This document shows, in pieces, positions 13,665 to 61,978 of a DNA stretch of 64,000 nucleotides. The notes beneath the pieces were generated by a model that was not told where the DNA came from, ran no database searches, and saw only the letters and a list, made by a program, of their open reading frames with translations. Made by a program: the position numbers and the translations under genes. Position 1 is the stretch's first letter; the number at the start of each line of letters is the position of its first letter. The DNA is from Escherichia coli (GTDB lineage Bacteria; Pseudomonadota; Gammaproteobacteria; Enterobacterales; Enterobacteriaceae): NCBI RefSeq assembly GCF_030384885.1, contig NZ_CP128613.1; one strand, written 5' to 3'.

Positions 13665-13790
13665 ACCAAACGACTCGGGGTGCCCTTCTGCGTGAAGGCT
13701 GAGAAATACCCGTATCACCTGATCTGGATAATGCCAGCGTAGGGAAGTCACAGACCACCAGGTCATTGCTTCTTCACGTTATGGCAGGAG
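13665..13790 (+). ncRNA. TPP (thi-box) riboswitch in the thiM 5' leader
   Basis: Leader contains GGGGUGCCCUUCUGCGUGAAGGCUGAGAAAUACCCGUAUCACCUGAUCUGGAUAAUGCCAGCGUAGGGAAGUC immediately upstream of the thiM RBS/ATG; matches the classic thiM aptamer I recall. Confidence 0.88.
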
Positions 13791-23968: not shown

Positions 23969-24418
23969 ATGACTAACCTGTTTGTTCGTAGCGGAATTTC
24001 TTTTGTCGATCGTAGCGAAGTTTTAACCCATATCGGTAATGAGATGATCGCGAAAGGTGTGGTTCATGAAACCTGGCCACAGGCATTAATTGCCAGAGAA
24101 GCAGAATTCCCCACCGGGATAATGCTTGAACAGCACGCCATTGCAATACCGCATTGTGAGGCGATTCATGCTAAGTCGTCAGCCATTTATCTGTTAAGAC
24201 CGGCGAATAAAATAAAGTTTCAGCAAGCTGATGATGATAACGACGTGGCGGTGTCGTTGATTATCGCGCTGATTGTCGAAAATCCGCAGCAGCAACTGAA
24301 GCTTTTGCGGTGCTTATTTGGCAAGTTGCAGCAACCAGATATCGTTGAAACGCTAATCACCATTTCTGAATCGCAATTAAAGGAATATTTCACACAGCAT
24401 ATTTTAGATTCCGAATAA
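23969..24418 (+). CDS. gatA: galactitol PTS enzyme IIA
   Basis: 149 aa; operon position. Confidence 0.9.
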   Translation: MTNLFVRSGISFVDRSEVLTHIGNEMIAKGVVHETWPQALIAREAEFPTGIMLEQHAIAIPHCEAIHAKSSAIYLLRPANKIKFQQADDDNDVAVSLIIALIVENPQQQLKLLRCLFGKLQQPDIVETLITISESQLKEYFTQHILDSE

Positions 24419-29044: not shown

Positions 29045-29457
29045 AATCGTATGCCTTTATGATTGGTCTGTAGATAGTGTAGAGCAGAAAAGAAAAGGTG
29101 GAGTCAGAACAGGATGAAAATCGGAGGATAAAAAGTCAGTTCAAGTATGGGGGATTCAGTGGTTACCACCAGGAGCTTGCAATGGGGACAGTGAATGTTA
29201 ACGGTAGCCACCGATAAATTTCAAAAAAGAACATATACCTAATATTCAACTAAACAGTGGCATCTTCAATATCTTATTCTAAATATATTAAAGCCCTCAT
29301 GGGGGTACCTGGGAAGGGCCTTCATGTTTGTAATTCCTACTTATGTAGGAAATGTTGTACAGAACATTTATTATAATCCTATTCAATTATAATAATCATG
29401 CCATTATTATATTTAAACACCATAGCGTGTCGTTGGTATTTAATGGGGGAAGGTGAG

Positions 29458-29775
29458 ATGAAAAAGACAGCTGCTATATCATTAATTAGTGTTTTTCTTA
29501 TGTCTGGTTGTGCTGTGCATAATGATGAGACAAGTATCGGTAAATTCGGTCTTGCCTATAAAAGTAATATCCAGCGTAAACTCGATAACCAATACTACAC
29601 TGAAGCCGAAGCATCTTTAGCCAGGGGAAGAATATCTGGTGCGGAAAATATAGTGAAAAATGATGCAGCTAATTTCTGTGTTACTCAGGGCAAAAAAATG
29701 CAGATAGTTAACCTGAAGACTGAAGGGGCAGGATTACATGGCGTCGCGCGTCTGACATTCAAATGTGGAGAGTGA
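29458..29775 (+). CDS. yegR: small lipoprotein-like protein YegR
   Basis: Track ORF 29398..29775; start at MKKTAAISLISVFLMSGCAV (lipobox-like). Confidence 0.7.
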   Translation: MKKTAAISLISVFLMSGCAVHNDETSIGKFGLAYKSNIQRKLDNQYYTEAEASLARGRISGAENIVKNDAANFCVTQGKKMQIVNLKTEGAGLHGVARLTFKCGE

Positions 29776-29945
29776 GAATATTTTTTTGTAAGCGTCAAAC
29801 ATGCGCGTTCTGGTTGTGCGTAGCCGGAGCCTGTACGAGCACGATGCCGTTAAGTGAAAGGCATCGTGCTATGAAGGGGGATTCTATCGATGTGGTCAAT
29901 GGAAGACGGTCACCTGGGATCAATCCGTCTCTATGGTTTATGCAT

Positions 29946-30032
29946 AAAAAATAAGCCCGTGTAAGGGAGATTACACAGGCTAAGGAGGTGGTTCCTGGTA
30001 CAGCTAGCATTTTATGGGTTATGTTTTTCAGC
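29946..30032 (-). ncRNA. cyaR: CyaR (RyeE) Hfq-dependent sRNA
   Basis: Reverse complement reads GCTGAAAAACATAACCCATAAAATGCTAGCTGTACCAGGAACCACCTCCTTAGCCTGTGTAATCTCCCTTACACGGGCTTATTTTTT, which matches the 87-nt CyaR sequence as I recall it, including the terminator hairpin and U-tail. Confidence 0.9.
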
Positions 30033-30116
30033 GAAACGGATGATAACCTTAATAAATGCAGCTGTATGTGATCGGTTTCTAAGAATTTTCCATCCGGGAA
30101 AAATAATCGAAATTAA

Positions 30117-31478
30117 TCACTTACCGTGGGGGTTACGCGTGGTTTCCCCGGAGAAATTACGCATCAGCAGCGCGTAATTTAGCTCAAGATCCTGCGGGAC
30201 CGGGATCCACACAGTATAACCATCGCCCGGTGCGACCGGCATTGCTTCGCCTTTGGCGTTTTCCATATGCTCAAGGGTAAAGTTAATGTTCCCTTGCGGC
30301 GTCATCAGCTCAAGGCTGTCGCCAACGGAGAATTTATTTTTCACCGCTACCGCCGCGAGGTCGCCCTTGCGCTCACCGGTAAACTCACCAACAAACTGCT
30401 GGCGGTCAGAAACTGAATAACCGTATTCGTAGTTCTGATAATCGTCGTGAGTATGACGACGCAGGAAACCTTCGGTATAGCCACGATGCGCCAGACCTTC
30501 CAGAGTTTCCAGCAGGCTGGTATCGAATGGTTTTCCCGCAGCTGCGTCATCGATAGCTTTACGGTAAACCTGCGCGGTGCGTGCGCAATAGTAGAAAGAT
30601 TTTGTACGACCTTCGATTTTCAGCGAATGCACGCCCATTTTGGTCAGGCGTTCTACGTGGGCAATGGCGCGCAAATCTTTTGAGTTCATGATGTAAGTGC
30701 CGTGCTCATCTTCAAACGCGGTCATATACTCGCCCGGACGCTGGGCTTCTTCGATCATAAACACTTTGTCGGTTGGCGCGCCGATACCCAGCGTCGGCTC
30801 AACATTTTGCACCGGAATTGGCTCGTACTTGTGTACGATGTTGCCAACGTCATCTTCTTTACCTTCCTGGACGTTGTACTCCCAGCGGCAGGCGTTGGTG
30901 CAGGTGCCCTGGTTCGGATCGCGCTTGTTGATATAACCAGAGAGCAGGCAGCGACCAGAGTAGGCCATGCACAGCGCGCCGTGAACGAAGATTTCGAGTT
31001 CCATATCCGGCACCTGATTGCGGATCTCTTCAATCTCTTCCAGCGACAGTTCGCGAGAGAGGATCACGCGGGTCAGGCCCATTTGCTGCCAGAATTTCAC
31101 CGTCGCCCAGTTCACTGCGTTAGCCTGTACCGAGAGATGGATCGGCATTTCAGGGAAGTGCTCACGCACCAGCATAATCAGCCCTGGATCGGACATAATC
31201 AGCGCATCCGGCCCCATTTCCACCACCGGTTTCAGGTCACGGATAAAGGTTTTCAACTTAGCGTTGTGCGGTGCAATGTTGACCACGACATAAAACTTTT
31301 TCCCCAGCGCGTGGGCTTCATTAATGCCGAGCTGAAGATTTTCGTGGTTGAATTCGTTGTTGCGCACACGCAGGGAGTAACGCGGCTGGCCCGCATAAAC
31401 AGCATCTGCGCCATAAGCGAAAGCGTAACGCATATTTTTCAGCGTTCCCGCCGGGGAAAGGAGTTCCGGTTTAAACAT
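30117..31478 (-). CDS. yegQ: peptidase U32-family protein
   Basis: 453 aa; conserved position next to cyaR. Confidence 0.88.
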   Translation of the reverse strand: MFKPELLSPAGTLKNMRYAFAYGADAVYAGQPRYSLRVRNNEFNHENLQLGINEAHALGKKFYVVVNIAPHNAKLKTFIRDLKPVVEMGPDALIMSDPGLIMLVREHFPEMPIHLSVQANAVNWATVKFWQQMGLTRVILSRELSLEEIEEIRNQVPDMELEIFVHGALCMAYSGRCLLSGYINKRDPNQGTCTNACRWEYNVQEGKEDDVGNIVHKYEPIPVQNVEPTLGIGAPTDKVFMIEEAQRPGEYMTAFEDEHGTYIMNSKDLRAIAHVERLTKMGVHSLKIEGRTKSFYYCARTAQVYRKAIDDAAAGKPFDTSLLETLEGLAHRGYTEGFLRRHTHDDYQNYEYGYSVSDRQQFVGEFTGERKGDLAAVAVKNKFSVGDSLELMTPQGNINFTLEHMENAKGEAMPVAPGDGYTVWIPVPQDLELNYALLMRNFSGETTRNPHGK

Positions 31479-31681: not shown

Positions 31682-33082
31682 TTAAAGAAAGGGAATATAA
31701 CCCCATAACTTGTTGTGAAGTTCCGGATTGCAGGTAAAAAGCGCCTGAAGTTGCTGACGCTGAGGAGCATTTGGTTGAATGCCCGAAAGATTGAAATTGC
31801 GTTGCCATATCGCGAGCTGTTTACCTGCAAATTCTTCAGTTAGCTTGTGTTGCGATTGCAGAAGAAGAATTAAACAGGCCCATTTGTTCAAGTTATGATA
31901 CAGCCGACAATATGCGCAAGCATGTTTAACTGACGGTGCGTTTTCCAGCAACTTACGTATTTCCTCGAACGTAAGCGGAACTCGACACCATACACAGATG
32001 TTAACCATAAATCGAAGCCCGGAGGCGTCCGGGTTAGCCAGTGTGGTCAGAATAATCCCTTTGACACCACCATCAGGATTGGCTTTCGCAAGAATATACA
32101 TAGCGGCTAATCGCATTGGGAATACATCCTGTGATAATCCCCATTCTGCCAGTTTTAAAATATTGGCATCATGAATGGAGTCCAGCCCGTATAAAGCTGC
32201 CCGGCGCTGTGAGGGAGTATATTCAGTCGAGGTGACAACATGACGCCAGAATTGCACAACATCCATGACGTCATTAAGCATGTTTTTAGCGCGTAGACGG
32301 ATCAACATATTGTTATCCAGCAGTAATGCGCTGTACAACGCCGGAGGAATTTCTATAGCTCGGTCAGTAAGGCTAAACAACGTTGCTTGTCGAATACGCG
32401 GCCAGCGGTCTTTTAACAGACGAGTTAATACCGCTTCGCTTAACGGTAATTGTTGACGCAGCCAGTGGGTGACCGCCAGCATTCGTAAACCTTCGTCGGG
32501 CTGCTTGAGTATTAAAAGCAGCGAAGATTCATCATTAAAGTAGCCATATTCAATCAGCGTTTGTAATACTGCGCGGGAGAGTTTTTTATCAGGGCAAGTA
32601 AGCCAACACGTTAATTGTGGACGGCTATTTTCTGTCAATAAAAATCTAAGTATCTCGTCTACAAATGCACGGTGATCGTAACGCTGGCATTGGAGAAGGT
32701 TACGTATCAAGGGAAGATTAACGGCAAATGCCGCTGCATTCTTATCCTTCTTTAAATGACGTAACGCTATGGTTGCAGCAAGGCGAACCTCTTTTACCCA
32801 GTCATTAGCTGCAAGTAATAATTCTTCTATAGCTGCAACATCCTCTTTTTGTCCCAGACATTGCACGGCCTTTTCTCGTATATATCCATTGTGGTGATGG
32901 GTAAGCTGGCAAAGAACCAGAGTATCGTTGAGATCACAATCATGCGCTATATAATTGCCTGGATCGGCTATCATCGACTGGAGTTGTTGCTGGATAAGAA
33001 ATAATTCACAGTCAACAGAATTATTCATTTCGACGTTAAACAAAACCCTGCGTGTAAATAATGTACGCAATCCTTTGAGCAT
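31682..33082 (-). CDS. hypothetical alpha-helical repeat (HEAT/ARM-like) protein, 466 aa; not a gene I recognise at this locus
   Basis: Complete ORF in a visibly AT-richer stretch than its neighbours; recurring hydrophobic/Ala-rich helical repeats (WVKEVRLAATIALRHL, LRMLAVTHWLRQ, PMRLAAMYILAKA); no signal peptide or TM segment evident. Confidence 0.6.
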   Translation of the reverse strand: MLKGLRTLFTRRVLFNVEMNNSVDCELFLIQQQLQSMIADPGNYIAHDCDLNDTLVLCQLTHHHNGYIREKAVQCLGQKEDVAAIEELLLAANDWVKEVRLAATIALRHLKKDKNAAAFAVNLPLIRNLLQCQRYDHRAFVDEILRFLLTENSRPQLTCWLTCPDKKLSRAVLQTLIEYGYFNDESSLLLILKQPDEGLRMLAVTHWLRQQLPLSEAVLTRLLKDRWPRIRQATLFSLTDRAIEIPPALYSALLLDNNMLIRLRAKNMLNDVMDVVQFWRHVVTSTEYTPSQRRAALYGLDSIHDANILKLAEWGLSQDVFPMRLAAMYILAKANPDGGVKGIILTTLANPDASGLRFMVNICVWCRVPLTFEEIRKLLENAPSVKHACAYCRLYHNLNKWACLILLLQSQHKLTEEFAGKQLAIWQRNFNLSGIQPNAPQRQQLQALFTCNPELHNKLWGYIPFL

Positions 33083-44932: not shown

Positions 44933-45073
44933 GGGAAAGCCCCTCCCGAGGAAGGGGCCTTAAATAAGGAAAGGGTCATGATGAAGATACTCATCATCGT
45001 GGTGCTCTTAGTCGTTAGCTACCCAGCTTACTAAGACTACCAGGGCGGGGAAAACCCCGCTCTACCCTCACTC
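44933..45073 (-). ncRNA. sibA: Sib antisense antitoxin RNA, unit 1 (approximate ends)
   Basis: Ends placed by analogy to the K-12 sibA/ibsA geometry (sib fully overlaps ibs on the opposite strand); not mapped from sequence. Confidence 0.45.
44978..45034 (+). CDS. ibsA: type I toxin Ibs, 18-aa hydrophobic peptide (MMKILIIVVLLVVSYPAY)
   Basis: ATGATGAAG... ORF preceded by an AGGAAAGGG RBS; matches the Ibs family. Confidence 0.75.
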   Translation: MMKILIIVVLLVVSYPAY

Positions 45074-45260
45074 CTGAAAATATGCCTTCACGGTCAGAAT
45101 GTCAATCCGCAGGCTTTGCAGTCTGCGATCCTGCCAGCAAATATTCTTTGCGAGTCGTTACGCAATAATCACAGATGAAACTATTTTATCTACGCGTTAG
45201 CGATAGACTGCATTCAGGGCGAAAGGAGGTAAGCCGATGATTTCAGCGGGACGCTGAAAC

Positions 45261-45401
45261 GGGAAAGCCCCTCCCGAGGAAGGGGCCTTAAATAAGGAAA
45301 GGGTCATGATGAAGTGGATCATCATCGTGGTGCTCTTAGTCATTAGCTTACCGGCTTACTAAGACTACCAGGGCGGGGGAAACCCCGCTCAACCCTCACT
45401 C
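45261..45401 (-). ncRNA. sibB: Sib antisense antitoxin RNA, unit 2 (approximate ends)
   Basis: As unit 1. Confidence 0.45.
45306..45362 (+). CDS. ibsB: type I toxin Ibs copy 2 (MMKWIIIVVLLVISLPAY)
   Basis: Second repeat unit; same architecture. Confidence 0.75.
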   Translation: MMKWIIIVVLLVISLPAY

Positions 45402-45588
45402 CTGAAAGTATGCCTTCACAATCAGATTGTCAATCCGCAGGCTTTGTAGTCTGCGATCCTGCCAGCAAATATTCTTTGCGAGACGTTACGCAATAATCAC
45501 ATGTGAAACTATTTTATCTGCAAGTTAGCGATAGACTGCTTGCATGGCGAAAGGAGGTAGGCCGCCGATTTCAGCGGGACGCTGAAAC

Positions 45589-45729
45589 GGGAAAGCCCCT
45601 TCCGAGGAAGGGGCCTTAAATAAGGAAAGGGTCATGATGAAGCTACTCATCATCGTGGTGCTCTTAGTTATTAGCTGGCCAGCTTACTAAGACTACCAGG
45701 GCGGGGGAAACCCCGCTCTACCCTCACTC
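45589..45729 (-). ncRNA. Sib antisense antitoxin RNA, unit 3 (approximate ends)
   Basis: As unit 1. Confidence 0.4.
45634..45690 (+). CDS. type I toxin Ibs copy 3 (MMKLLIIVVLLVISWPAY)
   Basis: Third repeat unit; same architecture. Confidence 0.7.
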   Translation: MMKLLIIVVLLVISWPAY

Positions 45730-45907
45730 CTGAAGTTATGTTACTCCACCCTTATTGTCAATCTGTAAGTCCACGTTCTTGCGGGGCGAATAGCAAAACC
45801 CTCTGCGCTTATGGGCCGAATTCTGAAAGTTGCTTTGCCTGCTCTTATTTCATTATTGCAGTCGGTATGATACCGGACCTCAATAATTCTCTAAGAAAGG
45901 ATTTCTT

Positions 45908-61320: not shown

Positions 61321-61788
61321 AGTAAGTACAAAACCTATTCGTTGTATGACAAATGTCACAATTCGATCATGGATAAATCGGGGCAAAAATGCAATGTTGC
61401 AGCACTATTTATCTCATATAATTTGAGGGTTATAACCTCACATTATCCCTGAATTAAAAGTGGCAATAATAAAACATTATTTAAGAAATATCGCATATGG
61501 AGACACTATATTAATTATTGTCAACCTAAAGAAAGTCCTAAAAAACATATTGATTGACACTTAATATAATTCTTAAAAATAGCCAATTGCCGAATTGTTA
61601 CCTTGCCTGCTATTCCGTTAGCTGTAACACTTCCTCCTGCATTATTGGAAGCCAATATTCAATTACCATAATGCCACCTTATATCTGGAAAATTAATTCA
61701 CGGAATAACGCTTTTTCATAATCGACTGCATGATGAAAGAGTTAGAAAATCTAAACTAAATCAGTGTATTGGTAGCTAAAAAGCCAGG

Positions 61789-61796
61789 GGCGGTAG
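61789..61796 (+). promoter_or_regulatory. ops element (GGCGGTAG) of the JUMPstart sequence in the wza leader; RfaH-dependent antitermination site
   Basis: GGCGGTAGCGTG present ~190 nt upstream of the wza ATG in a long untranslated leader. Confidence 0.75.
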
Positions 61797-61978
61797 CGTG
61801 TCTGGATGCCTGAAAGACCAGTCTGAATTATTCTGTCAATAGCCTGCGGATGAAATCAATTTTTTTAGGACTGATGCCAGTTAAATTTTTGTTCAATTAA
61901 CTGCAAGGTAAATGTGCATGGCGACATTGCTATTAATAGTGCACAGGATAATTACTCTGCCAAAGTGATAAATAAACA

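Follow-up and report, generated by a model that had tools for sequence, protein, structure and literature searches.

The cyaR small RNA gene of an Escherichia coli strain, its putative class II CRP promoter and the phage P2 attachment core in its terminator

In class II CRP promoters, the CRP box is centred at −41.5 and ends at −34, and the −10 hexamer starts at −12. The promoter of the small RNA gene cyaR is one of those described as class II, and its CRP site in E. coli was reportedly mapped by De Lay and Gottesman (2009), Johansen (2008) and Papenfort (2008). Its RNA, CyaR, is under positive control by cAMP-CRP and negative control by CpxR (PMC5861431, PMC8916003, PMC8313858). Its dependence on CRP has been reported for E. 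coli, Salmonella and Yersinia (PMC5861431, PMC8916003, PMC4376681, PMC11795201). CyaR was undetectable in a crp mutant of Yersinia pseudotuberculosis (PMC11795201), cAMP-dependent binding of CRP to the Yersinia cyaR regulatory region was observed in gel shifts (PMC4376681), and the CyaR of Y. pestis was found to be CRP-activated (PMC3770706). CyaR binds Hfq and represses ompX, nadE, luxS and yqaE, and its seed loop was identified as the target-pairing region (PMC5861431, PMC11795201). The gene is also known from phage biology, with "cyaR RNA" listed as a P2 insertion site in the E. coli W genome paper (PMC3032704) and ryeE, the other name of cyaR, given as a known phage target by Bobay et al. 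(PMC3603311).

The copy of cyaR analysed here lies in a window of 64,000 nucleotides, the whole stretch of E. coli DNA under study. It comprises a core enterobacterial gene, cyaR, and the CRP-dependent promoter of that gene, both already known, and the copy is an ordinary one, encoding a textbook Hfq-dependent small RNA through which outer-membrane and metabolic genes respond to carbon status (cAMP-CRP). The window copy is identical to the K-12 gene, and the value of the finding lies mainly in its correct annotation.

Identity, fold and annotation of the RNA

The gene and the two elements of its RNA were placed as follows.

29946..30032, minus strand: cyaR (ryeE), an 87-nt Hfq-dependent small RNA gene, with the 5′ end taken as G30032; placed by the Rfam match, the identity to K-12 and the fold
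29982..29998, minus strand: small hairpin presenting the C-rich anti-Shine-Dalgarno seed CCAGGAACCACCUCCUU in its exposed loop; placed by the minimum free energy fold, and written in upper case, as an invariant block, in the Rfam consensus
29946..29981, minus strand: Rho-independent terminator with an 11-bp stem, a 6-nt loop and a U-run, forming the Hfq-binding 3′ end; placed by the terminator scan

Read directly on the minus strand from 30032 to 29946, the full RNA (87 nt) is GCTGAAAAACATAACCCATAAAATGCTAGCTGTACCAGGAACCACCTCCTTAGCCTGTGTAATCTCCCTTACACGGGCTTATTTTTT, beginning with GCTGAAAAAC and ending with GGGCTTATTTTTT. The Rfam scan of the whole window gave a match to CyaR_RyeE (RF00112) at 29949..30034 on the minus strand, with a score of 100.7 bits (E = 6e-19; gathering score 47) and with model positions 1–85 of 85 covered, and a permissive rescan of 29700..30300 returned no match besides CyaR. 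In an alignment that also included a second E. coli genome, the window and K-12 proved 100% identical from the stop codon of yegQ (TGA, 30119..30117, minus strand) through the final base of the terminator T-run. The first-pass annotation had placed the full 87-nt CyaR on the minus strand, and this was borne out by the full-length Rfam match and the identity to K-12; its left boundary (29946) proved exact on direct reading, and the alignment brought out no mismatch to CyaR, promoter and gene being identical to those of K-12. The identity of the RNA was thereby established. Among 5426 complete E. coli genomes, 5421 contain the segment that holds promoter and gene (177 nt) at a coverage of at least 80%, and 5130 of the 5425 matching records are at least 99% identical to it. 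The neighbours in K-12 are the same as in the window, yegQ upstream and yegR with yegS downstream (order yegQ-cyaR-yegR-yegS), whereas the cyaR-yegR spacer and yegR itself have diverged by about 6% between the two.

The minimum free energy fold of the RNA (−19.8 kcal/mol, z = −3.0) comprises three hairpins, namely a weak one at the 5′ end, one of 4 bp that leaves AACCAC of the C-rich seed exposed, and the 11-bp terminator hairpin, which is followed by U-rich sequence. The terminator scan agreed with this fold, placing the stem at 29981..29954 with TATTTTTT after it. The traits of the CyaR/RyeE family, a C-rich seed in a hairpin loop with a terminator hairpin and U-tail downstream, were thus all found in the window RNA.

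No feature under cyaR was present in RefSeq/PGAP in any of the records inspected, so that automatic annotation passes over the gene. The locus tags of strain 2013C-4282 omit RS01885 at the position of cyaR. An exact CyaR seed-and-terminator pattern was also encountered in a contig of a metagenome-assembled genome of Collinsella sp. (Actinobacteria), where it most likely reflects enterobacterial contamination of the bin.

Two open reading frames adjoin or cross the gene, one of which had been called antisense and almost certainly spurious.

29763..29954, plus strand: open reading frame of 63 codons, judged non-coding from the lack of a Pfam match and from its codon differences

This frame exists. 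It shares the strand of yegR, begins within that gene, 13 nt from its 3′ end, and lies mostly in the cyaR-yegR spacer. Only the last 9 nt of CyaR (29946..29954) are overlapped, so that the description as antisense to CyaR was overstated, while the verdict of non-coding held. The second frame, of 71 codons, lies on the minus strand (30010..29795) with its AUG inside CyaR. That either frame encodes a small protein is suggested by their being open in the window and, for the 63-codon frame, by its also being open in K-12 over the aligned part. Set against this, a Pfam search of both products and of YegR returned no matches, and strain NCCP15648 carries an in-frame stop at codon 50 of the 63-codon frame. 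In that frame, comparison with K-12 gave a ratio of synonymous to nonsynonymous codon differences of 2:8, and comparison with NCCP15648 one of 2:6, neither of them more favourable than in two control frames, and in K-12 a 618-bp phage remnant lies at its 3′ end. The 71-codon frame passes through the CyaR terminator and would thus not be carried on the 87-nt transcript. A small protein from either frame is therefore regarded as extremely improbable, and both frames were rejected as genes, given the lack of a Pfam match together with the broken frame in one case and the required terminator read-through in the other.

Geometry and conservation of the promoter

The promoter elements upstream of G30032 are given below.

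30067..30082, minus strand: putative CRP box TTAGAAACCGATCACA, centred at −42.5 relative to G30032; proposed from sequence and conservation
30046..30066, minus strand: 21-bp spacer, constant in length but variable in sequence and lacking a −35 hexamer; marked by low information content
30040..30045, minus strand: −10 hexamer TATCAT, at −13 to −8 relative to G30032; conserved in 114 unique promoters

The right half of the box, GATCACAT, is a perfect consensus with TCACA at 30071..30067, while the left half is non-consensus, reading TTAGA against the consensus TGTGA. A TCACA half-site in a possible CRP string had been noted upstream at 30058..30079; half-site and string are indeed there, but the coordinates were wrong by 3–12 nt, the true ones being 30082..30067. 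Against TGTGA-N6-TCACA, the box matches at 8 of 10 core positions, a level that is at chance in the window, since the motif with at most two mismatches occurred 22 times in the window and 26.2 ± 5.2 times in shuffled sequences. Because the bare consensus match is at chance level, the assignment was based on geometry and phylogenetic footprinting instead. A GATC site for Dam methylation lies within the box (30070..30073, minus strand) and is invariant in 113–114 of the 114 unique promoters; since these four letters are also part of the extended CRP consensus GATCACA, the site may have no separate meaning.

Between the last A of TCACA (30067) and the −10 hexamer there are exactly 21 bp. A sigma-70 scan found no −35 hexamer at 16–18 bp from the −10 and no sigma-70 promoter on the minus strand upstream of cyaR. 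The same arrangement is seen in class II CRP promoters such as galP1 (site at −41.5), in which the 16-bp box stops 21 bp short of the −10 and the −35 element is weak or absent; the G:C pairs at positions 7 and 16 are likewise kept in the cyaR box. The cyaR promoter differs from them in its left half, which is TTAGA and not TGTGA across the order, and in its E. coli centre of −42.5, one base off the textbook −41.5, if G30032 is +1. In most other genera the distance from the −10 to +1 appears one base shorter, and the centre would then be −41.5.

Conservation was evaluated on 120 DNA stretches retrieved from one-genome-per-species contigs with a pattern that fixed only the CyaR seed and the terminator loop. 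Because seed and loop were fixed, the loci are not an unbiased sample of all cyaR homologues; the pattern lies inside the RNA, however, and the promoter was no part of it. Loci with at least 150 nt upstream formed the promoter set (118 loci, 114 unique sequences, about 32 named genera), drawn from Enterobacteriaceae, Yersiniaceae, Pectobacteriaceae and Photorhabdus. TCACA served as the anchor of the alignment, so that its five columns are invariant by construction, the others not. The arrangement TCACA-N21-TAnnAT was found in 118/118 loci, compared with a frequency of 0.00015 in random 110-mers. The longer string TTAGAA-N3-GATCACA, followed by N21-TAnnAT, was present in 111/118 loci, and the consensus left half TGTGA in 0/118. 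The seven exceptions to TTAGAA were all from Rahnella (CAAGAA, TAAGAA or TAAGGA), and two Yersinia loci carried the same box as E. coli. Positions 1, 2, 5 and 6 of the −10 hexamer (T, A, A and T) were invariant in the 114 unique promoters, always 21 nt downstream of TCACA. Information content was 1.7–2.0 bits at TTAGAA, at GA-TCACA-T and at these four −10 positions, as opposed to 0.1–0.6 bits in the flank upstream and across the 21-bp spacer, and the CRP box was the most conserved promoter block in the 118 loci. The position and conservation of the box, as distinct from its sequence match, are therefore far beyond chance, and box, −10 hexamer and spacing are conserved together. The cyaR promoter is in this respect a clean case of a class II layout that has stayed constant throughout an entire bacterial order. 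In the terminator stem, 38 distinct variants were counted among the retrieved loci, with nearly all positions paired and with compensatory changes at four positions.

The earlier suggestion of a class II CRP site activating cyaR thus gained support from the geometry, the conservation and the published CRP dependence, which together point to such a site. The best explanation, held with high confidence, is a cyaR gene with a class II CRP-activated promoter and Hfq-dependent repression of its targets. When glucose is scarce, cAMP-CRP would bind TTAGAAACCGATCACA (30082..30067), where a −35 hexamer would otherwise be, and the bound CRP would substitute for the missing −35 contact and recruit RNA polymerase to TATCAT (30045..30040) in the class II manner, with transcription starting at about G30032 and stopping at the hairpin and U-run whose end is at 29946. 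According to the literature, Hfq is bound by the 3′ end of the 87-nt RNA, and the exposed anti-Shine-Dalgarno loop ACCACCUCCUU pairs with the ribosome-binding regions of mRNAs such as those of ompX, nadE, luxS, yqaE and hdeD; this pairing blocks translation and triggers decay of the mRNA. For CRP occupancy of the exact box in E. coli, for the start site and for the targets, the account draws on published work or on inference, and what has been published applies to the window copy because its sequence is identical to that of K-12. That the box is the very site mapped in E. coli appears probable from the geometry and conservation and from the description of the promoter as class II.

The never-TGTGA left half is the only mildly unexplained point, everything else matching the known cyaR. 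One reading of it takes TTAGAA-N3-GATCACA as a composite element whose left half would be held by a second factor, for instance the repressor CpxR, or by contact with RNA polymerase. The counts lend it some weight, since TGTGA was found at none of the 118 loci and exactly TTAGAA at 111, and selection for a weak site alone should have allowed other weak variants as well; moreover, repression of cyaR by CpxR has been reported (PMC5861431, PMC8313858). The E. coli sequence GGAAA-N5-TAGAA upstream also loosely resembles GTAAA-N5-GTAAA, although this resemblance is weak and of our own reading. On the other side, the left-half positions contacted by CRP (T4, G7 and A8) are preserved, conservation of the upstream GGAAA does not extend beyond Enterobacteriaceae, and Rahnella tolerates CAAGAA and TAAGAA. 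A composite element is therefore considered unlikely. Equally doubtful is the wider proposal that the invariant TTAGAA has been selected for itself, either as a composite operator with, for example, CpxR or as a tuned low-affinity half-site, and is not simply a tolerated degenerate one; if it were true, a low-affinity left half-site would set the cAMP threshold for CyaR. Far less probable is an ordinary sigma-70 or sigma-E promoter to which TCACA is incidental. The bare CRP-like match, being at chance level in the window, is compatible with it, and the title of Johansen 2008, as cited in PMC5861431, links CyaR to sigma-E. Nevertheless, the −35 hexamer that sigma-70 would call for at 16–18 bp from the −10 is lacking, and positions +3 to +8 after TCACA match TTGACA at no more than 3 of 6. 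For sigma-E, a conserved GGAACTT-N16-TCNAA arrangement is likewise lacking, and visual inspection revealed neither a sigma-E type promoter nor tandem CpxR repeats that are conserved outside Enterobacteriaceae. A spacing fixed at 21 nt in all 118 loci cannot be incidental. Activation by CRP at a class II site, as set out above, was accordingly preferred to these readings.

A disrupted promoter was observed in E. coli DETEC-P622, in which an IS1 element lies between yegQ and cyaR and cuts the promoter at about the −10 hexamer (window position ~30042); cyaR is probably silenced in this strain.

Phage P2 attachment core and other features of the window

The 3′ end of cyaR was found to coincide with a phage sequence.

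29946..29972, no strand assigned: phage P2 attachment core (attB), empty in the window; placed by identity to the attP core

In a search of phage genomes, window positions 29945..29972 were identical at 28/28 positions to P2 (AF063097, 24355–24382), in which 24356–24382 are annotated as attP/Int core, between int and ogr. By this match, the last 27 nt of cyaR, a segment of its terminator, are the P2 attachment core, the chromosomal attachment site of P2-like phages, probably the one called locI. As in P2-type attachment sites the core is identical to attP, yet here it is unoccupied. K-12 differs from the window in this respect, since a P2 remnant (ogrK-D′), made up of ogrK and a truncated D gene, lies there directly past the cyaR terminator and is missing from the window. 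In strain NCCP 14541 the site is occupied by a complete P2-like prophage, with its integrase abutting yegR. When complete E. coli genomes were searched with an 821-nt query, the two sides of the site were not in one place in 861 of 5423 (~16%), and the partial matches broke at the two ends of the core (window positions 29972 and 29946). The cyaR terminator thus doubles as a P2 site, which is empty in this strain and therefore a likely site of lysogeny for P2-like phages.

Right after the attachment core there is a sharp boundary in identity, the spacer and yegR (29380..29945) being only ~94% identical to most E. coli. Only 2 of 5425 records were at least 99% identical to the 821-nt query, and in the matching strain 2013C-4282 the YegR homologue is named "hypothetical protein" by PGAP.

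Several further features were observed elsewhere in the window. A gene for a 466-aa HEAT-repeat protein (Pfam HEAT_2 and HEAT) lies between yegP and yegQ at 31682..33082 on the minus strand. Of 5426 complete E. coli genomes, only 39 have it at full length, and DETEC-P622, with its K-12-type arrangement, lacks it; the gene is an accessory insertion. Three tandem SIB antitoxin RNAs (RF00113, 137–139 bits each) at 44963..45105, 45291..45433 and 45619..45761 on the minus strand imply three Ibs/Sib type I toxin-antitoxin repeats, where K-12 has two at the same locus. A TPP riboswitch (13666..13762, plus strand, 71.5 bits) and a JUMPstart element (61762..61800, plus strand, 57.3 bits) were both detected above their Rfam gathering thresholds.
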